Assembly: GCA_965219875.1 (NCBI GenBank)
Contig: CBDCOW010000003.1
Span: forward strand, 1,165,892-1,229,891
Direction: 5' to 3'
Source: Dehalococcoidia bacterium
GTDB taxonomy: Bacteria > Chloroflexota > Dehalococcoidia > SHYB01
Length of the DNA stretch: 64,000 nt
Position 1 is the stretch's first letter; the number at the start of each line of letters is the position of its first letter. The notes under the pieces are model-generated. The model was given only the letters and a program-made list of their open reading frames with translations, searched no databases and had not been told where the DNA came from. The translations under genes were made by a program, and so were the position numbers. Shown here piece by piece: positions 37,959 through 50,154 of the stretch.

Positions 37959-38001
37959 GGTGTCTCCTTATCTTGTTTCTTCTCTGACTGTGTTCACGTC
38001 A

Positions 38002-38397
38002 CTAGGCTGCTATCCCCGATGACTGTCTCCTGATCTCGCCGAGGGTCATCGGCTCCCAGTAGAGGTCGCGCTCCACGGCGGGGACGCTGCCGAACACGGT
38101 CTCCTCCGCCAGCTCGGTGAGATCGAAGTACCCCAGCTCGGTCTCGAACCCTTCGACGAGGCCGAAGCACAGTCCGGTCTCGGCGTCCCATTCGGTGATG
38201 TACCAGCACCAGCCGTTGTAGGGGCTGAACAGCTTGGCCGGGGCGAGGACGTCGTCGTAGTCCTCGACGTTCTCGTTGGCTCCGATCGCTGGGATCCTGT
38301 CTCCCAGCTCCTTCGTCATGAGCTTGTGCCTGCGGTACCCGCTGTGGTTGTCCTGCCAGGTCGCGGCCGTCGTGGTGTTTCCCTTTTGGTCAAGCAT
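38002..38397 (-). CDS. DUF2958-family protein
   Basis: AKLFSPYNGWCWYITEWD...FGLVEGFETELGYFDLTEL...VERDLYW. Confidence 0.75.
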   Translation of the reverse strand: MLDQKGNTTTAATWQDNHSGYRRHKLMTKELGDRIPAIGANENVEDYDDVLAPAKLFSPYNGWCWYITEWDAETGLCFGLVEGFETELGYFDLTELAEETVFGSVPAVERDLYWEPMTLGEIRRQSSGIAA

Positions 38398-38445
38398 TGA
38401 TTTCTCCTCTCTTGTCTCTTCTCTGACTGTGTGTATGAGCGTTCG

Positions 38446-39261
38446 CTAGGCCGCTATCGCCTGCTCGGAGCCGGACCGCACCACCCTCTCCACCGCCTCC
38501 GGGGTGGCGTAGGTCGGGGCGACCGTGCCCTGCTCCATATCGAGGTAGAGGCCCATGAAGGGGCAGGTGCCAGCCACCATGCGGCGGACCACCTGTAGCA
38601 CCAGAGACGCCATCATCTGGTTGATGGTGGGATCCTGGTCGGTAAGGTCGAGGGCGGCAGCGCAGTCCACGTCCGGCGGCGCGGTCGGCACGGCCGTCAA
38701 GAGGTCGGGGCGCTAGAGCGTGGGCGCGGGCAGCAGGTGGCAGGTCTCGCCGGTGAAGGCGGCCTCGTCCCACGTCACCTCGTCGGCGACGTTGCCCACC
38801 AGTACCTGTCCCCAGTTGGTGTCGTTGCCCGCGTCGATGAGCCACCGGCGCGGGTCTCCCGGCAGGCACTCCGCCATCGCCCTGCGTGCGGCGGCGTTGT
38901 CGGCGCAGCCGATGAGCAGGCCCGCGCCGTGGGTCGGGAGGCCGGGATAGCGGTGTCCGTAGGGGCTGGAGTCCTCCTCCCGAAAGGGGTAGACCGAGTA
39001 GCCGACGGGACGCCGGTAAGCCCTGGCCAGCCGGTCGGCGAGGGCCTGGCTCTTGAACTTGCCCACGTCCTCCGAGTAGAAGTTCTGCCGCAGCAGGTTG
39101 TGGGGCTCCACCCGGTCATGATCAACCAGGACGATGGTGGCCTCCCCGTCCCTGGAAGAGGCGGCAGAGGCCCTCGGCCACGAAGCCGCCGGTGCCGCCG
39201 CATCCGACCACGGTGATCCACGGGCCGTCCAGCAGGAATGCGTTTCCAGGTAGTAGGGCAT
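38446..39261 (-). pseudogene. ThiF/E1-like adenylyltransferase (PRTRC-type), disrupted
   Basis: After correcting two homopolymer indels: ITVVGCGGTGG...VDHDRVEPHNLLRQNF...KSQAL. In-frame TAG at 38713-38715 (likely CAG), after which the frame continues with DCAAAL...INQMMA. Confidence 0.85.
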
Positions 39262-39267
39262 TGGTAG

Positions 39268-39864
39268 TTACCTCTTTGTTGTCGTTTCGGGCTCTTCGCC
39301 CATCAGCCGGACGCCGGGGTCTGGGCCGCAGAACACCTGGGACCAGTCCACCGGGGCGAAGTGGCCGTAGACGCCGACCCGGAGACTCAGCTCGGGCCGG
39401 AGTTCGTCGAGGCGTCCAACGACGCCGTAGATGCGGAAGCCCTGCTCGTCCCGGTTGTCGGTGTCCGAGAAGAAGGCGCGGGAGCTTCCGTGAGAGTGGA
39501 ACTCGGCGACCACGCCGGCAGGCGGTTCGTAGGCGAGGGACGACGCGGTCCCAACCTGTGGAGGAACCACAAGCCGGTAGGCATGGCCGTCCCAGCGGAC
39601 TGCGAAGAGCCGCTCGGTGTTCGTGTCGTCCTGGAACCAGCGCAGCCCCAGCTCGAAGAGGCGTGCCGGGATGGGGCCGTGGGACAGCGCCACCTTCTCG
39701 GCGACGGGAGCGAGCCCGCGCACCGAGCCAGGGGCGACCGGTATTCGAGCCACCAGGTGTGCGCTCCGGGACTGGACGTAGACTCCTCCCGATCCCAGCA
39801 CGTAGTCGTAGCCTATTCCCTGGATGCCGGAGAGCCCGGCGGGGTGGTTGACCAGGTAGCCCAC
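39268..39864 (-). CDS. Prokaryotic JAB/MPN metalloprotease (PRTRC protein A-like)
   Basis: EFHSHG..RAFFS.TDNRDE JAB motif, RIYGVVGRL. GTG 39864 is the probable start. Confidence 0.85.
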   Translation of the reverse strand: MGYLVNHPAGLSGIQGIGYDYVLGSGGVYVQSRSAHLVARIPVAPGSVRGLAPVAEKVALSHGPIPARLFELGLRWFQDDTNTERLFAVRWDGHAYRLVVPPQVGTASSLAYEPPAGVVAEFHSHGSSRAFFSDTDNRDEQGFRIYGVVGRLDELRPELSLRVGVYGHFAPVDWSQVFCGPDPGVRLMGEEPETTTKR

Positions 39865-39880
39865 CGGCCCCGGTGCGTTG

Positions 39881-40153
39881 CTAGCGGTAGCCCCGTCTCC
39901 CCTCGGAGACCGCCATGGCGTGGGCCACCGTACACTGGGGAACCAGGTCCTCAAACGGGTATTCGGTCTTTCCATCGAGCTCCTCCCATAGCGCTTGCAG
40001 GTTGTCGGGGTGCTTATTCGAGCGGTCCCGCGAATCGCCGGTAAGCGAGAAGAAGGACTCCGGTATCAGCCCCACCTCCTCGGGGAACCGGTGGCTTCCG
40101 GGACAGACTCTCCCGTCCCTGAAGACGTTGAAGCCGGGGGCCCGGAAGAGCCG
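39881..40153 (-). pseudogene. C-terminal fragment of a prokaryotic E2 family D protein (PRTRC protein B-like)
   Basis: LFRAPGFNVFRDGRVCPG...SFF...LWEELDGK..YPFEDLV. The 5' part is missing. Confidence 0.65.
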
Positions 40154-40158
40154 TCCAC

Positions 40159-40542
40159 CCCGACGCCTTCGGCGTCCTGCGCGGAGGCCCCGTCACGTGG
40201 CCCTTCTTCCTGGAGTGGGAGCGCCGCGCCGTGCGGCCCGCGACGATGACGGAGCGGCTCGCGCCCTATCTTCGATACTACTCGTCACACCGGCCCACCG
40301 ACGACCACGGCGTCCGGACCGCCGTACTGGTCGTCTTCGACGACGACCAGGCGGCCACTCACTTCCTGCGCCTGGCGATGGAGGAGATGGACAGGGCCAG
40401 GGTCGAAGTGCCCCTGTGGGTCTCCCACAGGGGCGCCATCGACGCGCTGGGGCCGCTGGGACGGGCGTGGCGCGCCCCAGGCGACCGGGAGCCCGCACAC
40501 GTCCTCTTCAGCCCGCCCCGCACTCGATACGGGGGCCGCTGA
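40159..40542 (+). pseudogene. C-terminal fragment of a replication-relaxation (Replic_Relax) family protein
   Basis: PDAFGVLR...FFLEWERRA...RLAPYLRYY...VLVVF. It begins abruptly back-to-back with the E2 fragment. Confidence 0.6.
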
Positions 40543-40609
40543 AACGCGGTGCGGAACGGGAGTGGAGCGGCGGCTCCCGCTCCGCCCTGAAAGGAGGTTT
40601 TCAGAAGCT

Positions 40610-40891
40610 ATGGAAACGGATCGCATCGGCGAATCGAGAGGCCACCGGAGACCCCGGCGACGCACCGTCGTCCGGCTCGACCGAGAGGCGCTCTGGAAGC
40701 GGCTGGCGGTGCTGAACCGCTCCCAGAACTGGTTGGCGGGGAAGGCCGGGATCAGCCCCGGATACCTCTCCATGCTGGTCAACGAAGAGCGCGCGCCTTC
40801 GGGACGCATCCGAAGACGGATGCAGCAGGCCCTCGGAATAGAGGACTTCCACCAGCTCTTCAGATTGGAGGACGACAGTGAAAACCCCTAG
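40610..40891 (+). CDS. XRE-family HTH regulator
   Basis: SQNWLAGKAGISPGYLSMLVNEERAPS. SD AAGGAGG. Confidence 0.8.
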   Translation: METDRIGESRGHRRPRRRTVVRLDREALWKRLAVLNRSQNWLAGKAGISPGYLSMLVNEERAPSGRIRRRMQQALGIEDFHQLFRLEDDSENP

Positions 40892-41156
40892 AACTCCCAG
40901 GCACAACACCGGCGAGGAGGTCGGAATCAACATCGACGGCCGCCCCGTGCCCTACCAGAGCGGCGTCCTGCCGAAGGACTTCGCCAAGCGGCTCAAGAGG
41001 CTGAAGAAGGCCAGCGGCCTCACCTGGAACGCCTTCGCCGACGCCCTCGGCGTGGACAAGAAGAGCGTGCAAAGGTGGTCCAACGGGACCGAGCCCTGCG
41101 GCGGCGCCTACCACTCCCTCATGAGCCTCGCGCCCATGATTCCCGGAGGCGTCGAC
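40878..41156 (+). pseudogene. XRE-family HTH regulator truncated by fusion to a recombinase fragment
   Basis: FAKRLKRLKKASGLTWNAFADALGVD...RWSNG.EP. The sequence switches to recombinase DNA near 41157. Confidence 0.7.
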
Positions 41157-41872
41157 ATGCAAGGTGCACCGGGACAACCACCAACGTTCGCAACGGCAAG
41201 AAGTACCGCTACGACCTTCCCACTCCCCGCCGCTACTACATGTGCAACGGGATGCAGAGTCTCCGTCTGCGCTGCCGGGAGCGTCCCTACATCCGGGCCG
41301 AGTGGTTGGAGGAACCGATATGGACCGAGGTGAAGCGGGTAATCCAGAACCCCGATCTGATCGTCGCCGGTATCGACACTCTCGATATTCAGGGGAGCGG
41401 CAGTTTGGAGGAGGAGATCGCCCAGGCTGAGCGAGACCTGCGGAGCATCCAGATGGAAGAGGCCCGCGCCATCAGGCTGTTCGTGTCGGGGAAGATCACC
41501 GAAGCCCAACTCGACCTTCAGCGCAGGTTCATCACCGAGCGACTTGAGAGCGCCAGGGCGAAGCTGGACGATTACCGGACTCGGGAGGCGAGCGGGGCTG
41601 AGAAGCGGCAGCTGATGAAGACAATCCTCGCCTGGGCGAGGAACGTCGGCCAGGGCATTGACGAGCTGACCGATAAGGAGCGCAAGGAGATTCTCCAGAT
41701 GGTTTTGGAGCAGGTCGTCATCGACAGGGACAACAACGTGGACATCACCCTGGCTATACCCATCGACGATGAGTCCCCTAACCCTGAGCCTGAGTCGCCT
41801 GAGCCGGCGTCCCCTGAGCCTGAGTCCGTCGCAATTGCGTCTAAAGAACCTTTGAGTTTAGGTTCTCCTTAG
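41157..41872 (+). pseudogene. 3' fragment of a large serine recombinase
   Basis: RNGKKYRYDL.TPRRYYMCNGMQSLRLRCRER, near-identical to the C-terminal half of 17075-18664. It ends in ESPEP repeats. Confidence 0.88.
41845..41866. other. Candidate att site at the right island boundary
   Basis: AGAACCT-N8-AGGTTCT, at the same position relative to the recombinase stop as the left-hand motif. Confidence 0.45.
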
Positions 41873-42114
41873 CGTCCTAGGCCTCCGAGCAGACGCATGC
41901 GCCTTATGTAAGCGACTACCGACGAAGAGCGGCCGTTTCTTCTCCGATGAGGCATCTTGGACGGGGAGATCGAGGGAGTCAGTCTTCCCTAAAACACGGC
42001 ATCTTCTCCACACACGACGGGGGCCGGCGCGTATGGAGAATCAGAACTTTGAGACCATCTCTAGCAGGTGCCTCCTCGGCCACGGACCAGGTTCGGGGGC
42101 CTTCTACACTTCCG

Positions 42115-42143
42115 TTGACAAAGGTGGGTGGCAGCGTTAGACT
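42115..42143 (+). promoter_or_regulatory. Sigma70 promoter overlapped by an inverted repeat
   Basis: TTGACA-N17-TAGACT. GGTGGGTGG...CCGCCCACC dyad across the -10 box. Confidence 0.7.
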
Positions 42144-42157
42144 CCGCCCACCAAACC

Positions 42158-42682
42158 ATGCCCAGCCGGATATCAAAGGCGAGCTCTGTGTCCAATCTCT
42201 ACACGTCGATTACAGCGGAGCTCCTCAAGGGGTTTCAGACCCAGGTCACGATCCGGCGCAGCGAAGGCGGCCAGGGCGACGGCCCGTGGTCCATAATCGT
42301 CGACGAAGGCCCGGCCGTCGGCGGGACGGGCACAGGACCCTCACCGGGCCCCCTGGCGCTAGCCGGGCTTGCCGCCTGAACCGTGGCCACGTTAGCGGGC
42401 GTGACCCGTCGACGGAACATGGGAATCGAAGGCCTGCGAGTGGAGATGGAGCTTCACCGCATCTTCTCGGGCAAAGAGGAAGCCGAGGAGGCTGCCGCCA
42501 AAGGCACGGATCTCGACAAGAGGAGGCCGGTTATCAAGCGCGTCTACGTGAAACCGAGCCGAAGCCTCAGCGAGCGTGACGTGCAGGTGCTGAGGAATAC
42601 GATGAAGCATTGTCCCGTAGGTAGAATGTTCTCAGGGGGCGATATAGAGTTTCAAGAAGAGCTCATTATCGAGGGGTCTTAG
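42158..42682 (+). CDS. OsmC/Ohr-like protein with in-frame UGA at the first catalytic Cys (candidate selenoprotein)
   Basis: VDEG..VGGTGTGPSPG.LALAGLAA-TGA(42377)-TVATL...KHCPV. Both ORF-track halves are in the same frame. Confidence 0.8.
42390..42414 (+). promoter_or_regulatory. Candidate bacterial SECIS hairpin
   Basis: CGTTAGCGGG-CGTGA-CCCGTCGACG. The stem starts 11 nt after the UGA, and there is a G in the first two loop positions. Confidence 0.55.
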
Positions 42683-42694
42683 GAAGGTCTCATC

Positions 42695-43648
42695 ATGGCC
42701 GTCGATGCACATGTCCATCTTTGGGCTAACGAGAATCTGCCGGAAGGTAATCGGCTGGTCTACGCTCGTTGGGCTGCTTTCGCCCGGCTACCGTACCGTG
42801 ATCCTTACGACATCCTACCGAGAGTAGGCCCAATAGCTTGGGACCCCGAGGGTGTCGACTTGATGAAGTACATGGACACCATGGGAATCGACAGGGTCGT
42901 GAACATGGTCGTCGATTGGGGCCTTGCCTGGGGCATGGAGCCGGAATGGGACGTCTACCAGGTGAACCAGCATGCCAGCTCCCTCATGCAGAAGTATCCC
43001 GGCAGATACTTCTACTGCGCGGGGGTGGATGCCCGGCGTGAGAACGCTGCCGACGTGCTGGAAAAGGCGGTCAAAGAATGGGGCGCCGTCGGGGTCAAGC
43101 TCCTGGTGGCCAACGGCTTCTCCCCTGACGACCGCATATGCTACCCGCTTTATGAGCTCGCCCGGGACCTGGACTTCCCCGTTGTCATTCACACCGGCGA
43201 AGGCGACGTGGCCTCGTATCCCAAGGAGGCGCACCCCTTCAACATGGCGGCGCCCGCCAGAGACTTTCCTACCGTCAAGTTCGTCGCCGCCCATACCGGC
43301 GGAGGACTGGACGGGGTGTGGCAAGAATGCCGGCAGATAGGTCTGCTTCACAACATCTACTTCGACCTCTCGGAGTGGCAGTTCGGCGTGGCGCCAACTG
43401 CCAGGTCACCGCACCGGGAAGAAGAGCTGTTCCGGGTGCTGCACTCGTTCCGCGACTGGTGGGGAGCGCACCGCATTATGTGGTGCACCGACTATATGAA
43501 GGGCCACTCCCTCGAGATCGACCGGTACTGGGTGGAGTTGTTCAAGGACCTGCCGGCGAGAGGCAAGAAGTACGGATATACCTTCACTCAGGAAGAAGCC
43601 GATCTCATGTTCGGCGGGGCTGCCGACCTGCTGTACGGCCTCGAGTAA
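42695..43648 (+). CDS. Amidohydrolase_2 family protein
   Basis: VDAHVH, VIHTGE, VAAHTGG, IMWCTDY. Confidence 0.9.
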   Translation: MAVDAHVHLWANENLPEGNRLVYARWAAFARLPYRDPYDILPRVGPIAWDPEGVDLMKYMDTMGIDRVVNMVVDWGLAWGMEPEWDVYQVNQHASSLMQKYPGRYFYCAGVDARRENAADVLEKAVKEWGAVGVKLLVANGFSPDDRICYPLYELARDLDFPVVIHTGEGDVASYPKEAHPFNMAAPARDFPTVKFVAAHTGGGLDGVWQECRQIGLLHNIYFDLSEWQFGVAPTARSPHREEELFRVLHSFRDWWGAHRIMWCTDYMKGHSLEIDRYWVELFKDLPARGKKYGYTFTQEEADLMFGGAADLLYGLE

Positions 43649-43708
43649 AAGGCCACGGTTACAGCGTAGGTAACCCCCAAGGGCCTCGCTCGGAGGCCGA
43701 CGGTGTGC

Positions 43709-44494
43709 CTACTGTTTCCGATCGGGGCTGTTCTCCCGCTGTGTGAAGGCTCGGGCGGCGTCTAGATTCTCCTGCGTCCAGCTCAGCTTCTCGTGCCACA
43801 GCTCAGCCAGGTCCCTGGCTTCCGACGGATGCGTGTACTGCGACTTCTTCACCAGAGCCTTGTAGGCCTGCACCGCCTCGGCTGAAAAGGACGTGATCTT
43901 CTCGGCCACCGCCAGAGCCTCTGGCATCAGTTGCTCTGGCTCAACCAGGCGGCTGACAAAGCCCCATTGGTAGGCCTGCTGGGCGTCGATATGGTCTCCG
44001 GTCAGGGCCAGATCGGCGGCGACGGCTTGAGGGTACAGGCGCGCCATCGTCCATACCGGACCCACGAGGTTCGCCTGGATCTCCATGTCCCCGAACAGCG
44101 CCGCTGTGCTGGCGATACGGATGTCGCAGTCCATCGCGATTCCCTGGCCTCCCCCGACGCAAAACCCGTTGATGGCGGCGATGAGCGGCTTCTCGATCTC
44201 GTGGGGCCCCGGCAAGCCCCATTTCTTCCAGTCCCGCTTGCCCAAGTAACGAGTGGGTTGGCTGCCCTGCTCCCTGTGCAACGCGCGCTCCTTCATATCG
44301 GCCCCGGCGCAGAAGCCCCGTCCGGCGCCGGTAACGACGGCCACCTGCACGGCATCGTCCTCTTTCACGTCCTCCCAGCATGCGCCCAGCTCTTCATGCA
44401 ACTGATTGTTGAGGGCGTTCAGTACCTGCGGTCGATTCATAGTGATGACTGCGACACCGTCTCGCTTTTCGTAGAGCACCGTTTCAAACGCCAC
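43709..44494 (-). CDS. Enoyl-CoA hydratase/isomerase family
   Basis: ITMNRPQVLNAL, FCAGADM, AAINGFCVGGG. GTG after AGGAGG. Confidence 0.9.
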   Translation of the reverse strand: MAFETVLYEKRDGVAVITMNRPQVLNALNNQLHEELGACWEDVKEDDAVQVAVVTGAGRGFCAGADMKERALHREQGSQPTRYLGKRDWKKWGLPGPHEIEKPLIAAINGFCVGGGQGIAMDCDIRIASTAALFGDMEIQANLVGPVWTMARLYPQAVAADLALTGDHIDAQQAYQWGFVSRLVEPEQLMPEALAVAEKITSFSAEAVQAYKALVKKSQYTHPSEARDLAELWHEKLSWTQENLDAARAFTQRENSPDRKQ

Positions 44495-44599
44495 CGCTGT
44501 CCTCCTGGTTTCCAACCTCGTTCCCCGTAAGACCGGAGCATGAGGCTTCGGCATGACTCGACCTCTCGCTGATAGCTCCGTCGAACACTGCTCAGGCCT

Positions 44600-45790
44600 T
44601 CAGACCACCCCGAGCTGGCGCAGCCGGACCAGTCCCTGGGAGCTGAACCCGAGCTCGCTCTGGAAGACCTGCCCGTTCGCCTGGCCTAGGAGCGGCGCTG
44701 GCCGGCGGACCCGCCAGGGTGTCTGCTCCATGATGAATGGCCGACCCGGTATCGTGACCCGTCCCAACACCGGATGCTCGACCTCCTCCCAGACCCCCCG
44801 CTCGTTGAAGTGGGCGTCCGCCAGGACATTCGCTGGGGTGAACATCGGACCGGAGGGGATCTTATGTTTTTGCGCCGCTTCCCAAGCCTCCTGCATGGTC
44901 CGCTCCAGGAGCCAGGGAAGAAAATACTCCGTGTTGAAGACGTATGAGTTGTCCGGCTTCGACCATTCCTCGATCTGGGAGAACCTGGGGTCGGAGAGGA
45001 GGTCCTGGCAACCCATCATTTCGAGCACCATCGGAAACCGAGCGCCCCTTCCCCAAATGTTGATGTAGCCGTCTTTGCAGGGCCAGGTCCCTGTAGCTAT
45101 TCCGGTGGCGCTAGGGGAGCGTCCGAACACCGTGCCCGTGTGTTGGTAGCCCAGGATAAAGGCGAGGCGGCGATCGATAGTCCCGGCCTGGGCCTCCAGG
45201 CGGGATACCTCCACCCAATCGCCTTCCCCCGTTCCCTCCGCCGTAGAGAAGGCAGTCAGGGCGGCCGTAGCCGCCAGCAGACCAGCCTGGTACGAAGCAA
45301 CGTCATCGCCGTACTTGAGCGGCTCCCATTCAGGGACGCCGGTGGCATGCATTGGACCGCCATGGCCAACGGCCACAATATCCTCGAGCTTCCAGTCTTC
45401 GAGGAGGCCCTCGCCGTATCCGGCTATCGAGACGACAACCAGACCCGGATTTCCCTCCCGAAGCTCCTCCCCGAGGACTCTCCCTCCGGAAGATTCGACA
45501 ACGATGTCGGTCCGCCGGGCCAGCCCCTTAAGCAGCTCGCGTCCGGTGCGGGTCTTCCAATCAAGCGTGATACCGGTCTTGTTGAAATTGAGGAAGAAGA
45601 AGGTGCCGGAGGCTTCCGGGTCGGGGTTATCGTTCGGGAACGGACCCCAGCGACGGGTGACGTCGCCGCCGGGCGGCCGTTCCACCTTCAATACGTCCGC
45701 CCCGAAGTCGCCAAGAAGGCGAGCGGCGAAGGGTCCTGGGACGCCTTCGCTCAGGTCCAGGACCAGCACTCCATCTAGGGCGGTCTCCAC
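44600..45790 (-). CDS. Class III CoA-transferase homolog lacking the catalytic Asp
   Basis: GPFAARLLGDFGADV, NFNKTG, RRPAPLLGQ. ASYQAG occupies the position of D(x)3G. Confidence 0.88.
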   Translation of the reverse strand: METALDGVLVLDLSEGVPGPFAARLLGDFGADVLKVERPPGGDVTRRWGPFPNDNPDPEASGTFFFLNFNKTGITLDWKTRTGRELLKGLARRTDIVVESSGGRVLGEELREGNPGLVVVSIAGYGEGLLEDWKLEDIVAVGHGGPMHATGVPEWEPLKYGDDVASYQAGLLAATAALTAFSTAEGTGEGDWVEVSRLEAQAGTIDRRLAFILGYQHTGTVFGRSPSATGIATGTWPCKDGYINIWGRGARFPMVLEMMGCQDLLSDPRFSQIEEWSKPDNSYVFNTEYFLPWLLERTMQEAWEAAQKHKIPSGPMFTPANVLADAHFNERGVWEEVEHPVLGRVTIPGRPFIMEQTPWRVRRPAPLLGQANGQVFQSELGFSSQGLVRLRQLGVV

Positions 45791-45799
45791 GTGCTCTCT

Positions 45800-46912
45800 C
45801 TATCGGTCGTCGGCCATCGTTGGGATGGGGAGCGGCGCGCTGGCCAGCAGGCGGCGATCTATGCTCTCAAGCGTCGGACGCCCGCTTTGGGCCATGGCCG
45901 TGTCCAGCTCATCTCGCAAGATATGCAATACGGCCCGCACGCCTGCTTCGCCGTGCACGGCCAGGCCCCATAAATACGGCCTGGCGATCGTGACCGCCCT
46001 CGCCCCCAGGGCAAGCGCTTTCAGCACATCGGTGCCTCGCCTGATGCCGCCGTCCAGGTAGACCTCGAGTTTGCCTTCGACTGCATCCACCACCTCGGGA
46101 AGGACCTCGACTGTTGAGAGGACCGAGTCCAGTTGCCTTCCCCCGTAGTTGGAGACGATCAAGCCCTTCACTCCATGCTCGAAGCATAACCGAGCATCTT
46201 CAGCGGTCATAATACCCTTTACGGTGAGTGGCAACGGTGAGTTAGCGGCCAGCCGGTCCAGGTCCGCCCAGGTTGCTGAGGCAGACTTCAGGTCCTTGAG
46301 CTGTCCTAACCCAGCATAGTTGGGAGAGGGCCGAACTGCCTTGCTGTTCCTTGAAGCCCGTTCCCGCTTTGGCGGTACCGGGACGCCCACCGACAAGCAG
46401 AGGGCGCTGTACCCGGCTTCGCTGGCCCGCTCAACGAAAGACTTCGTCAGGCCGGGGTCCCGATATGACACAAGCTCGAACCAGATCGGGCCCGTGGCCG
46501 CCTCGGCGATTTCTTCCATGGTGAAACTGGAGCTTCCACTGACAACGCCGATAGTTCCCATGGCGCCCGCCGCGCGCACCGTGGCCAACTCGCCATCGGG
46601 ATGAATCGCGCCCTGGAGTCCCGCGGGGCCCACTAAGACGGGAAAGTCCACGCTCTGTCCCAGGACCGTGGTGGAGACTCGCCGATCGGCAACGTCGACC
46701 AGAACTCGAGGGCGCAGTTGGATTGCACCGAATGCGTCACGATTCCGCCTCAGGGTGAGCTCGTCCAAGGCGCCACCGGCCACCGACTCGTATACGGCTC
46801 TAGGAAGAAGTTTTCGCGCCTCGGCTTCGAACTGAAAGAGGCTCGCCAGCGTCGCAGCGGAGCGTGTCCCTCGCTTGGGTCTCTTTTCGCCAGGTGTCAG
46901 CGGGCTCGGCAT
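45800..46912 (-). CDS. FMN-dependent alpha-hydroxy acid oxidase/dehydrogenase homolog with altered active site
   Basis: LRPRVLVDV, PLTVKG, VSNYGGRQLD, DGGIRRGTDVLKALALGA. Confidence 0.9.
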   Translation of the reverse strand: MPSPLTPGEKRPKRGTRSAATLASLFQFEAEARKLLPRAVYESVAGGALDELTLRRNRDAFGAIQLRPRVLVDVADRRVSTTVLGQSVDFPVLVGPAGLQGAIHPDGELATVRAAGAMGTIGVVSGSSSFTMEEIAEAATGPIWFELVSYRDPGLTKSFVERASEAGYSALCLSVGVPVPPKRERASRNSKAVRPSPNYAGLGQLKDLKSASATWADLDRLAANSPLPLTVKGIMTAEDARLCFEHGVKGLIVSNYGGRQLDSVLSTVEVLPEVVDAVEGKLEVYLDGGIRRGTDVLKALALGARAVTIARPYLWGLAVHGEAGVRAVLHILRDELDTAMAQSGRPTLESIDRRLLASAPLPIPTMADDR

Positions 46913-46989
46913 GAATTATCCAGCGACGGAAGGTTGTGCAGGGTACGGGCAAGGCAGAGGAGGGGCTAACAAGTGTCGAAGGGAGCAAG

Positions 46990-48039
46990 TTACATGAAGT
47001 AGGCCATGACTTGTTCACCGCACAGGCGCATCGACCTGGTAGCATGCTCCGGCGGCAGCACGCCGTAGTGGGTGAGCATAAGATTCCGCACGCCAGCCTC
47101 ACGTAACTGTGTCATCTGCTCTCTAACCCGCCCGGGCGAGCCGACGAACAGCTCTGGCGCAGCAGGATCGGGTGCCTTCCCATAGCTCGAGCGAGGCAAC
47201 ATGGCAGCCGGGCTTGCAACAGATGTTTCTGGCGAGTTCCATCGCCTCCGCGACTCCACTACGCGCTCGCGGCGCTTCTGTTCCGCGGGCAAGAACTCCT
47301 CCAGCGCTTCATCGTCTGTCTCCGCCACATAACAGTCCCGCCAGTCCCAGAGCTTGTCCAGGCTTCGCTGCACCGAGTCCTTGTCGAAGCCCGCGCCACG
47401 CATACTGTCCTCGTAGAGGCTTATCCTCTCCCGTGCATCGACCGCGGACCTACTGCGAATCAGCACCGGCCTGCCCAGTCGACCCATCTCCGCGATGGAA
47501 TCGCGCGTGAGGCAGGCTCGGTAAAGAGGGGGGTGGGGTTTCTGCCAGGGGACTGGCCGGATGCCTGGCATGGAAACGTCCCAGTAGTGACCATGGTGGT
47601 CTAGATTCTCCTGAGTCCAAGCCTTGACGAGGAGCTCCTCGGCCTCATCATTCTGGTCCGCGGCGATTTCAGACGTGGTCCCGAACCCTCGATACTCATA
47701 CTCGTTCCCGCTCGTCCCTCGGGCGAGGCCCACCATCAATCGTCCATGGCTCAGGTTGTCCAGCACTGAGGTTTGGATCGCGAGCCGGACTGGGTGATGC
47801 AACCCCGCCTGAACCACAGCAAAGCCCAGCCGCACCCGATGGGTCCGCCCGGCTACCGCCGCCGCAAAGACGATCGGGTCGGCATAGACGGTGTCGCCGT
47901 TGAAATGGTGCTCTCCGAACCACAAGGAGTCGTAGCCAAGCTCTTCTGCGAGCGTCGCTACCTGGAGCGCCTCGTCCATTCGCCGGGAATCCTGCGAGGG
48001 CTCGGGGCTGTTGTACAGAAGAAAGTAGCCGAACTTCAA
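46990..48039 (-). CDS. Luciferase-like (LLM class) flavin monooxygenase
   Basis: AEELGYDSLWFGEHHF, HPVRLA, GRLMVGLARG, PWQKPHPP. TTG after GGAGG. Confidence 0.92.
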   Translation of the reverse strand: MKFGYFLLYNSPEPSQDSRRMDEALQVATLAEELGYDSLWFGEHHFNGDTVYADPIVFAAAVAGRTHRVRLGFAVVQAGLHHPVRLAIQTSVLDNLSHGRLMVGLARGTSGNEYEYRGFGTTSEIAADQNDEAEELLVKAWTQENLDHHGHYWDVSMPGIRPVPWQKPHPPLYRACLTRDSIAEMGRLGRPVLIRSRSAVDARERISLYEDSMRGAGFDKDSVQRSLDKLWDWRDCYVAETDDEALEEFLPAEQKRRERVVESRRRWNSPETSVASPAAMLPRSSYGKAPDPAAPELFVGSPGRVREQMTQLREAGVRNLMLTHYGVLPPEHATRSMRLCGEQVMAYFM

Positions 48040-48069
48040 TGGCTCCTCCCGGTACGACAAGCGCATACT

Positions 48070-48108
48070 AGAATCAGCCCGGGCGGTTCGACCGCCCGGG
48101 CTGATTCT
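48070..48108. terminator. 18-bp perfect hairpin downstream of the SBP gene
   Basis: AGAATCAGCCCGGGCGGT-TCG-ACCGCCCGGGCTGATTCT. Confidence 0.75.
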
Positions 48109-48134
48109 TTGAGTCTGCTAGCCGCCGTTACGGA

Positions 48135-49889
48135 CTAGGCCGTCAATCTAATGTTTTCCCACTGAATGTCCGCGAGGCTTCCCGGCAACTCGAACCCTTC
48201 CACCCTCTTGGTCATCACGTAGGGCTCCGGGATGGTGATGGCGTACATGTAAGGCGGATCGCCTTCGACGCTGATCAGCTTGAGCGCCTCGCTGATCAAT
48301 TGGGCCTGCCTTTCGAAGTCGAACTCGGCCAGAATCTGGTCGCGCTTGGCGTAGTACGCCGGATTTTCGTAGGCGATGTTCGCACCGGTGCCTTCGGGAT
48401 CCATCTGGGTCAGGTAATAGACGCTATTGTTGTAGGCATCCACACCGACCTGTCCCATGATGTCGAACCACTCTTTGCCATCCCTGCGGAAGAGGTGGTC
48501 GACGAACAACGACAGGTCGATGCGCGCCGTGTCCACCTCGATGCCTACATCCTTCCACATTTTCTGGAGGGCGAAGCCGGTATCCTCAGCGGAGCCGCCA
48601 CGCCAGAACCGGTACGTCAAGCTGAAACGGGTGCCATCGCTACCTCTCGGATAGCCGGCTTCGTCGAGCAACTGATTGGCCTTGTCTACGTCAAAAGGAA
48701 TCGGCACGCTAGAGTCGTAGCCAATGCTGGTAGGCAGCGTCGGCGAGGAAACGGGCGTCGCAAAGCCTCTCCAGATAGTGCTGGCAATGGTCTCACCGTC
48801 GGCCGCATAGATGAGGGCCTGACGGACACGCACGTCATTCAGAGGTCCGCCCGACTTCTTGTGTTTTCCGATAGCTAAAAGGTGCGCCAGGGACCGGGCG
48901 TTGGGCGCCTGTACGACGAAGCCGTCGTTCTGCAGAGCTACCAGGTTCGCCGGCTCGATCTGTGTATGCGATATGTCCGCGTTGCCCGACCGAAGAGCGG
49001 CCTCCATAGTTGCCGGTTCCCTGATCACGTTCGCTTCGATCCTCTCGAGGAACGGCTTGCGGAATGCGTGCGGCTGGCCCGTTAACTCGGCAGTCCACTT
49101 CACCCTGAACTCGAACTCGGTGAAGCGATATGGTCCGCTTCCGATGGGCTTGGCCACAAACTCCTCGGCCCCTACGGACTCGAAGTAGTCTTTCGGGAGA
49201 ATCCGGAGGTGTTGACCCTTAGATGGAATCAACACATCGGGCTTTGCGGTCTTGAACTCCAGGGTGACGTCGTCCACCGCTATCGCCTCGGCCACCGTAC
49301 CGAAGTGTCGGCGGCCGGCAAGCTTCTCGGTGAGGATCCTGTTCATCGAGAAGGCAGCGTCTTCCGCGGTCAGGTCCTCTCCGTCATGGAACTTCACGCC
49401 CTCGTGGAGCTTGAAGCGCCAGGTCGTTGCATCGGGCGCTTCCCATGACACCGCCAGGCTAGGCTGGGGAATACCATCAGCGTTGAGGAGCAGGAGATTG
49501 TCATAGACCGTCCGCAGCGTGCCCATCCAGGCGACGGTGAAGTGGGGGTCGTTTGGAGGCCCTCCGAATGCAAGGTGGCGCATGACTTGCTGTACGGCGG
49601 TCGTCGGAGTCGGCGGGGGTGTCGCCGTCGGAGTCGGCGCTGCCGTCGCCGTCGGAGCCGTCGTCGCCGGCATGGCCGTGGGAGCCGGAGCCTCACCCGC
49701 CGCCGGTCCTTCAGGGCCCGCCGGCCCTTGAGCGCCCGCCGGTCCTTGAGCGCCCGCCGGTCCTTCGGGGCCCGCCGGCCCTGCTGGCCCAGGCGGTCCT
49801 TGCGTCCCGCCGCATGCCGACGCGACAAGCGCGATGACTATGCCTACGGCGAATACTGCCATCAATTTGCGGGAAATAAAGAGAGCCAT
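48135..49889 (-). CDS. Family 5 ABC solute-binding lipoprotein with collagen-like Gly-X-Y and PT-rich linkers
   Basis: Lipobox ASAC, GPPGPAGPAGPEGPAGAQGPAGAQGPAGPEGP, VKFHDG, PIGSGPY. ATG 49889 after AGGAGG. Confidence 0.9.
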   Translation of the reverse strand: MALFISRKLMAVFAVGIVIALVASACGGTQGPPGPAGPAGPEGPAGAQGPAGAQGPAGPEGPAAGEAPAPTAMPATTAPTATAAPTPTATPPPTPTTAVQQVMRHLAFGGPPNDPHFTVAWMGTLRTVYDNLLLLNADGIPQPSLAVSWEAPDATTWRFKLHEGVKFHDGEDLTAEDAAFSMNRILTEKLAGRRHFGTVAEAIAVDDVTLEFKTAKPDVLIPSKGQHLRILPKDYFESVGAEEFVAKPIGSGPYRFTEFEFRVKWTAELTGQPHAFRKPFLERIEANVIREPATMEAALRSGNADISHTQIEPANLVALQNDGFVVQAPNARSLAHLLAIGKHKKSGGPLNDVRVRQALIYAADGETIASTIWRGFATPVSSPTLPTSIGYDSSVPIPFDVDKANQLLDEAGYPRGSDGTRFSLTYRFWRGGSAEDTGFALQKMWKDVGIEVDTARIDLSLFVDHLFRRDGKEWFDIMGQVGVDAYNNSVYYLTQMDPEGTGANIAYENPAYYAKRDQILAEFDFERQAQLISEALKLISVEGDPPYMYAITIPEPYVMTKRVEGFELPGSLADIQWENIRLTA

Positions 49890-50154
49890 CTTCCGGCCTC
49901 CTGAGTGCGGGCGCGCAGCGCGCGTCGTCCCCGAATCTGAGCCCCACGCGATAGATTCATCCGAGGTTGGGGCAACCTTGCTCGCATCTAGTAACATAGC
50001 CCAGAACCCTTGTCAAGTGAAGCGACAATCGACAGCACATCCCGAAACGGGTATCTTGTGGGTTGACTAGGGAGGCGGACGCTCTTGGAAGCCTCAACCG
50101 GTGTCGATGCCCTGGTTGCGGAGCGTCGCCGGGGCCACGGAGGGCACGGGAATC

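Follow-up and report, generated by a model that had tools for sequence, protein, structure and literature searches.

A reading frame in DNA from a Dehalococcoidia bacterium raises the question of whether an internal TGA ends one protein or directs selenocysteine (Sec) into the middle of another. The stretch that we analysed (the window, 64,000 nucleotides) lies in contig C3 of the host assembly, a 3.76-Mb metagenome-assembled genome (MAG) of an uncultured Dehalococcoidia bacterium with 66% G+C. Translation of the forward-strand frame at 42158-42682 revealed only one internal stop, TGA 42377-42379, and under translation table 11 the region yields two open reading frames (ORFs), of 83 amino acids (42128-42379) and 99 amino acids (42383-42682). 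A preliminary description of this DNA had regarded the two ORFs as a single frame split at the TGA, and this is what the translation gives. We conclude, with a probability of roughly 0.9, that 42158-42682 is a genuine selenoprotein gene. We are equally confident that it is a single intact gene, encoding a Sec-containing OsmC-fold protein of the thiol/selenol peroxidase type in this Dehalococcoidia bacterium. Its main elements are:

42158-42682, + strand: complete gene of the proposed selenoprotein, 174 codons including UGA-Sec74, stop TAG 42680-42682
42377-42379, + strand: UGA presumed to encode selenocysteine (Sec74), in the place taken by the peroxidatic Cys in OsmC/Ohr enzymes, from column conservation and PDB alignment
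42611-42613, + strand: Cys152 (TGT) in the motif K-H-C-P-V, presumed resolving cysteine; C-P-V is invariant and aligns to the CPV of OsmC structures in the PDB

The 174-amino-acid read-through product matched the Pfam OsmC domain (PF02566) in one stretch, from residue 56 to residue 163, that includes the TGA (E = 1.5e-11; 45 bits, the cut-off being 27.5). Sec74 (U74) falls in the motif LAGLAA-U-TV. When a profile built from the window protein and six homologues was compared with PDB chains, the TGA column aligned with the first of the conserved Cys residues (9wo1_A, LaGLgaCT; 1vla_A, LtGLmgCT), in agreement with the preliminary description, which had placed the UGA exactly at the catalytic Cys motif of the OsmC family. 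The second Cys to which it drew attention, in KHCPV, is encoded at 42611-42613 and is invariant in all homologues, and the C-P-V aligns with that of solved OsmC chains. In E. coli OsmC (Cys59/Cys125) and in Ohr (Cys60-61/Cys125), the first Cys is peroxidatic and the second is resolving.

In the AlphaFold model of the window protein (pLDDT 75.5, pTM 0.71), U74 lies within a long helix (residues 63-85) and C152 between helices 139-150 and 153-158. All of the 50 best Foldseek matches in the PDB (50/50) were OsmC/Ohr or OsmC-like structures. The moderate TM scores (0.4-0.67) fit the fact that the model is a monomer and the reference fold a domain-swapped dimer. The fold of E. coli OsmC and of the two-Cys organic hydroperoxide reductases (Ohr) of Xylella, Pseudomonas and Chromobacterium was matched with a Foldseek probability of 1.00 (1lql, 3cje, 1qwi, 1zb9 and others), and in both the long helix carries the first redox position and the CPV the second. 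Unlike these enzymes, the window protein has Sec in place of the peroxidatic Cys, and its identity to them is only 10-21%. Its Pfam score, two redox residues and OsmC fold place it in the OsmC/Ohr superfamily, and by homology peroxidase chemistry is plausible.

Six-frame searches of related genomes recovered homologues that each contain exactly one in-frame TGA. The genome G009 carries an orthologue (L014, 85% identical to the window protein) and two paralogues, while the homologues in G013 and G011 are 59-61% and 43-46% identical. TGA occupies the same column in 10/10 Sec-form genes, that is, the window gene and nine homologues that are 37-85% identical to the window protein. Six of the ten come from four genomes of the same family (three being the G009 paralogues) and four from unrelated metagenomes. 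The three G009 paralogues of this clade (L014, L030 and L033, at 516539, 512773 and 97653 of its contig C2) all have TGA, and two of them are only 3.3 kb apart, on opposite strands.

Two further homologues have Cys. L074 (protein P0005), which is full-length and 45-51% identical, and L075 (P0009) both carry TGC at the Sec column, and both group with the Sec clade in the tree described below. The preliminary description had proposed looking for homologues with TGA or a Cys codon at this position. As nine homologues keep the TGA while L074 and L075 have TGC, the relatives are not all Cys forms. For the window gene and L014, a pair whose synonymous divergence is unsaturated, dN/dS was 0.09 upstream of the TGA and 0.15 downstream. 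Thus, the downstream part evolves as translated protein, which excludes a sequencing error or a recent nonsense mutation as the origin of the TGA. Since a gene of the Sec-OsmC clade is absent from six other genomes of the window's own genus, the gene may be accessory or recently acquired.

Sec forms are present in public databases only as fragments, with N-terminal pieces of 70-71 amino acids and C-terminal pieces of 82-97 amino acids, so the prediction that gene callers would mis-split the gene proved correct. An exhaustive search of representative sequences recovered N-terminal fragments of 70-71 amino acids and C-terminal fragments of 92-97 amino acids. The N-terminal fragments all finish in ...LAA or ...LAS, directly before the TGA, and on the contigs of four database fragments the two halves are joined by TGA. 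A word-indexed search with the full-length read-through protein gave no match, because the Sec forms exist there in pieces and the nearest Cys form has too few words in common with the query; with the C-terminal fragment as query, it returned three fragments only. Searching with a four-sequence alignment identified only the G009 orthologue among genome contigs, and two loci, both of the G013 type, among metagenomes.

Two independent short ENA contigs of the database fragment P0014 (L067 and L068) both end 3 nt after the TGA and yield no sequence downstream from which a hairpin could be read. That they break at the same point may reflect an assembly break at a G+C-rich hairpin, or coincidence. 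We also recovered three longer relatives (P0007, P0010 and P0012). Two are tandem double-OsmC proteins (321-337 amino acids) with Cys in the first domain and, in the corresponding place of the second, Ser (LAGLAASTAATL), and one, of 259 amino acids, has Ser (ALVASTLSQ) at the Sec/Cys column. The Ser-bearing relatives may be non-redox or "dead" copies.

The RNA that follows the UGA contains a hairpin, which the preliminary description had likened to the SECIS elements of bacterial selenoprotein genes. Counting RNA positions from the U of the UGA, we distinguish two parts:

42393-42411, + strand: conserved core of the candidate SECIS, from RNAalifold on 10 sequences; 8-bp stem, RNA positions 17-24 paired with 28-35
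42381-42422, + strand: extended lower stem around the core, specific to the window; RNAfold minimum free energy -21 to -21.9 kcal/mol

An imperfect 10-bp hairpin with the loop CGUGA had originally been placed at 42390-42414. RNAfold does give a hairpin there, with nine pairs and one mismatch, inside the longer stem at 42381-42422, but the conserved core lies slightly further in, at 42393-42411. The conserved stem begins 13 nt after the UGA and the loop G-U 21 nt after it. The loop of the family consensus is G25-U26-N27 (42401-42403), with G25-U26 invariant in 10/10 Sec genes. In the window copy, G28 is replaced by A (Ala to Thr), leaving a stem of 42395-42399 paired with 42405-42409 and the loop CGUGA at 42400-42404. 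Because this change disrupts the closing pair and enlarges the loop to 5 nt, the window hairpin is the weakest of the ten (-7.1 kcal/mol, with Sec forms down to -15.2 kcal/mol). We found no conservation of the lower stem (42381-42422) among homologues, and it is therefore probably inessential.

Folding energy does not set the hairpin apart from shuffled sequence (z of -0.74 to -1.57, not significant in this 66% G+C DNA), and a search of Rfam gave no meaningful match, with no bacterial SECIS family matched. Comparison among the Sec genes gave a much stronger signal than folding energy. The pair between positions 19 and 33 is G-U in four genes, G-C in three and A-U in three, and is never A-C and never broken (RNAalifold, n = 10); no strict compensatory change on both sides, relative to the commonest pair, was counted in these 10 sequences. 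The stem sits inside the codons for (A/E/V/M/T)-G-V-A-R, and conservation of the protein could in principle explain it. However, among the 148 ungapped columns, only codons +6, +7 and +9 have a third position that never varies across the ten genes, and these third positions are exactly the ones paired in the SECIS stem. The probability that three random sites all fall within one 4-codon stretch is ~8e-6 if the stretch is fixed in advance and ~1e-3 if it may lie anywhere in the gene. Since these synonymous sites are frozen, protein conservation does not account for the stem.

The codon alignment of 11 sequences joined the ten Sec forms with the Cys form L074, which encodes the same peptide, LAGVARRR, via GCT GGA GTG GCG AGG and has lost the hairpin. 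Its 19-nt segment folds at -2.9 kcal/mol, compared with -7.1 to -15.2 kcal/mol in the Sec forms; Cys forms are represented in this control by two sequences only. On the comparative evidence, rather than on folding energy, we take the hairpin to be more than chance and under selection. The description of it as SECIS-like therefore holds up, as it is conserved in 10/10 Sec genes beyond what the protein sequence needs.

In E. coli fdhF, the minimal SECIS element lies 11 nt after the UGA and has G23-U24 in its loop. The fdhF and window elements are both hairpins within the ORF, just 3′ of the UGA, whose small apical loop presents G-U at a set distance from it. Compared with fdhF, the conserved stem here starts at 13 nt instead of 11 nt after the UGA, and its loop G-U is at positions 25-26 instead of 23-24; the fdhF-like spacing initially proposed is thus close, but 2 nt longer here. 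Other differences are that the consensus loop of the clade has 3 nt (5 nt in the window) and that no bulged U is evident.

A Sec codon in this gene would imply Sec machinery in the host, as the preliminary description had pointed out, and selA, selB, selD and a tRNA-Sec(UCA) are all present. The matches to selA (444 bits), selB (330 bits) and selD (367 bits) exceed the curated cut-offs. Since the SelB match spans positions 2-580 of the 581-position model, it includes the SECIS-binding C-terminal part. The tRNA-Sec is 99 nt long, with a UCA anticodon and a long extra arm. The selD gene, which lies ~20 kb past the end of the window in the host genome (G000 C3:1249996-1250919), has one in-frame TGA of its own in a 364-codon open frame, and the host SelD is probably itself a selenoprotein. 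We also considered a reassigned genetic code and ruled it out: TGA terminates 1386 of the 3805 long stop-to-stop frames in the host genome (36%), and is thus an ordinary stop.

Flanking the gene are two features that bear on its expression:

42115-42143, + strand: putative sigma-70-like promoter, TTGACA-17 nt-TAGACT, from a consensus scan (10/12 positions)
42695-43648, + strand: amidohydrolase gene (PF04909, Pfam E = 1.9e-23), 12 nt after the OsmC stop

The strong promoter previously reported directly upstream corresponds to the promoter-like consensus match at 42115-42143, which would be expected to act as a promoter. The consensus scan found 2 sites where 0.6 were expected, and the same hexamers with the same spacing occur upstream of the orthologue L014. 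Transcription would be expected to start ~7 nt downstream of this site, leaving a leader of only ~8 nt before ATG 42158, which has no Shine-Dalgarno (SD) sequence. The alternative start, GTG 42188 (164 codons), is the sole in-frame start common to the window gene and L014; L014 has no ATG at the position of 42158, and its first in-frame start is the GTG equivalent to 42188. Hence, in the numbering used here, the protein begins at residue 1 or at residue 11. Residues 1-11 are unconserved and are modelled by AlphaFold with low confidence.

The amidohydrolase gene also follows L014 in G009, and we detected no terminator-like site on the + strand between the OsmC and amidohydrolase genes. From the 12-nt gap and the same gene order in G009, the two genes are probably co-transcribed; the pairing is absent at the loci of the other homologues. 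A 161-amino-acid ORF upstream of both L072 and L074 was evaluated as a conserved neighbour and rejected, as the two ORFs are unrelated (one is glyoxalase-like and the other is a 2-hydroxyacid dehydrogenase fragment).

Just upstream of the gene, 38000-41872 consists of multi-copy mobile-element remnants. Within it, 38021-40153 recurs elsewhere in contig C3 as a copy at 83%, 40153-41777 has many matches at 70-82% in its own genome and in genomes of the same genus, and the ORF at 41075-41872 retains no more of a large serine recombinase than its zinc-ribbon part. Positions 35945-37156 encode an IS110-family transposase. On the other side, 43709-49997 carries a run of catabolic genes on the minus strand, among them genes for an enoyl-CoA hydratase, a family III CoA-transferase, an FMN-dependent alpha-hydroxy-acid dehydrogenase, a luciferase-like monooxygenase and a solute-binding protein (SBP_bac_5) that has a collagen-like repeat close to the N-terminus. 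A DNA search of the region 38000-47000 against six same-genus genomes matched only mobile-element pieces present in many copies and short motifs of paralogues; none of the six has an orthologous locus.

These data also allow us to weigh other readings of the TGA. An OsmC gene of the Cys type could have acquired it recently by nonsense mutation, or one of its bases could have been miscalled. The split of the frame under table 11, the lack of the gene in six same-genus genomes and its position beside mobile-element remnants would all be compatible with such a pseudogene or assembly error. However, nine other genes from independent assemblies, down to 37% identity, share this TGA, the downstream frame is under purifying selection (dN/dS 0.15), and the synonymous sites of the hairpin are frozen only in genes that bear the TGA. 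Conservation thus effectively refutes this explanation, to which we assign a negligible probability.

Alternatively, the UGA could mainly be a real stop, yielding a 73-amino-acid N-terminal peptide and perhaps a separate C-terminal peptide that starts at GTG 42383 or ATG 42419, possibly as a split OsmC. Gene callers output exactly such fragments, in-frame starts lie just past the TGA, and Sec insertion in bacteria competes with termination. Yet a split would remove the catalytic residue itself, and no SD-like sequence precedes the downstream starts, which are unconserved, with fragments beginning at different Met residues. Nor would a stop explain why the triplet is TGA in every case, with TAA and TAG never seen, why relatives have Cys instead, or why selection on synonymous sites maintains a hairpin with a G-U loop; we consider this reading very improbable, although it has slightly more in its favour than the others. 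Nearly the same low probability, a shade smaller, applies to read-through with insertion of a different residue, either Cys or Trp by near-cognate decoding or whatever a reassigned code would dictate. The frame is clearly translated past the TGA, and the identity of the inserted residue is here a prediction from sequence. But the use of TGA to end 36% of long frames speaks against reassignment, and the complete Sec pathway with its tRNA-Sec(UCA), the Cys in the aligned column of relatives (a classic Sec/Cys pair) and the SECIS-type hairpin under selection all favour Sec over another amino acid.

A model that accommodates the intact gene, the conserved UGA, the Sec/Cys pairing, the selected hairpin and the Sec machinery of the host is that UGA 42377-42379 is decoded as Sec and not as a stop, as would be expected from the known mechanism of the family. 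In this model, the hairpin core at 42393-42411, with G-U exposed in its apical loop, would act as a bacterial SECIS, and the loop would recruit SelB-GTP-Sec-tRNA(Sec) to the ribosome to deliver Sec at the UGA. Homology with OsmC/Ohr suggests that Sec74, located in the long central helix, would then attack a hydroperoxide to form a selenenic acid, which Cys152 of the CPV motif would resolve to a selenenyl-sulfide. The selenenyl-sulfide could subsequently be reduced by a thiol reductant, such as a lipoylated protein or a thioredoxin-type partner.

OsmC-like selenoproteins have been known since 2005. They were among the 15 new selenoprotein families of the Sargasso Sea study of Zhang, Fomenko and Gladyshev, with three sequences assigned to COG1765 and a UxxT motif (PMC1088965); the preliminary description had mentioned Sec-containing OsmC-like proteins from marine metagenomes. 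They are also listed in catalogues of 2022 and 2026 (PMC9312934, PMC13188914). Some of the richest entries of BSepDB are MAGs of Dehalococcoidia, with 46-49 selenoproteins (PMC13326102). The kind of protein, its mechanism and the Sec richness of the taxon are thus already in the literature.

How closely the window protein is related to the family of 2005 (COG1765/YhfA, PF02566) can be judged from several comparisons. They share the OsmC fold, a Sec in place of the first Cys, the existence of Cys homologues and a SECIS within the ORF directly after the UGA. The local motif of the window protein, U-T-V-A-T (Thr at +1, Ala at +3, Thr at +4), may differ from the UxxT of the 2005 family, a published motif whose register is uncertain. 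Compared with the 2005/NF041052 family, it also has an N-terminal extension and a helical insert of ~20 residues (~101-125). Among NCBIfam models it scores highest against NF041052, "OsmC-related (seleno)protein" (E = 7.6e-12), at 45.4 bits, well below the curated cut-off of 95, and all seven aligned members of the clade match this model only at E = 3e-13 or weaker, none near the cut-off. In a maximum-likelihood tree, the ten Sec and two Cys forms made up one branch, apart from canonical YhfA-like OsmC proteins, with a branch length of 0.63 and support of 86/88. This placement, drawn from sequence comparison, is suggestive rather than decisive of a clade separate from canonical YhfA-like OsmC.

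Canonical Sec-OsmC proteins also occur in Dehalococcoidia. L017, a YhfA-like Sec-OsmC gene of the genome G008, has TGA at the same column as the window gene. Proteins of this type are 35-36% identical to the window protein, shorter (149 amino acids) and on a different branch of the tree, and the SECIS of L017 (CCAUCACCCUU...AAGGGAUGG) is unrelated in sequence to that of the window. Canonical short (~150 amino acids) YhfA-like OsmC genes with TGA were present in at least 10 other Dehalococcoidia genomes (at loci including L040, L041, L043, L045 and L063), the TGA column being confirmed for L017 only, and many other genomes have the Cys form of canonical YhfA-like OsmC.

Together, these comparisons suggest that the window protein represents a divergent, mostly Sec-using branch of the known OsmC-like selenoproteins. 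We regard it as possible, if rather doubtful, that it belongs to a separate and not-yet-catalogued subfamily of OsmC-fold selenoproteins, distinct from the 2005/NF041052 "OsmC-like" family. If so, the markers of the subfamily would be G-P-W-S-x-x-V-D-E, LAA-U-T-V and G-V-A-R-R, together with the N-terminal extension and the helical insert. Sec would be its prevailing state, with 10 Sec and 2 Cys forms among the members found, and the SECIS within the ORF would have frozen the peptide G-V-A-R. Given that an amidohydrolase gene accompanies it at both of the only two loci with shared gene order, the substrate of such a subfamily might not be a simple hydroperoxide.

The gene provides a sound annotation correction and a demonstration of how a SECIS acts on codon usage, and it opens no new question. 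At present, it and its Sec relatives are held in databases as two meaningless fragments. A profile with U/C at the catalytic column, combined with the 19-nt SECIS, would recover fragmented Sec-OsmC genes. The family is also a natural example of a SECIS constraining codon choice, as the Sec genes and the Cys gene encode one and the same peptide, the former with the hairpin and the latter without it. For the Dehalococcoidia, whose genomes are already rich in selenoproteins, the gene adds one more selenoprotein of the thiol-peroxidase type.
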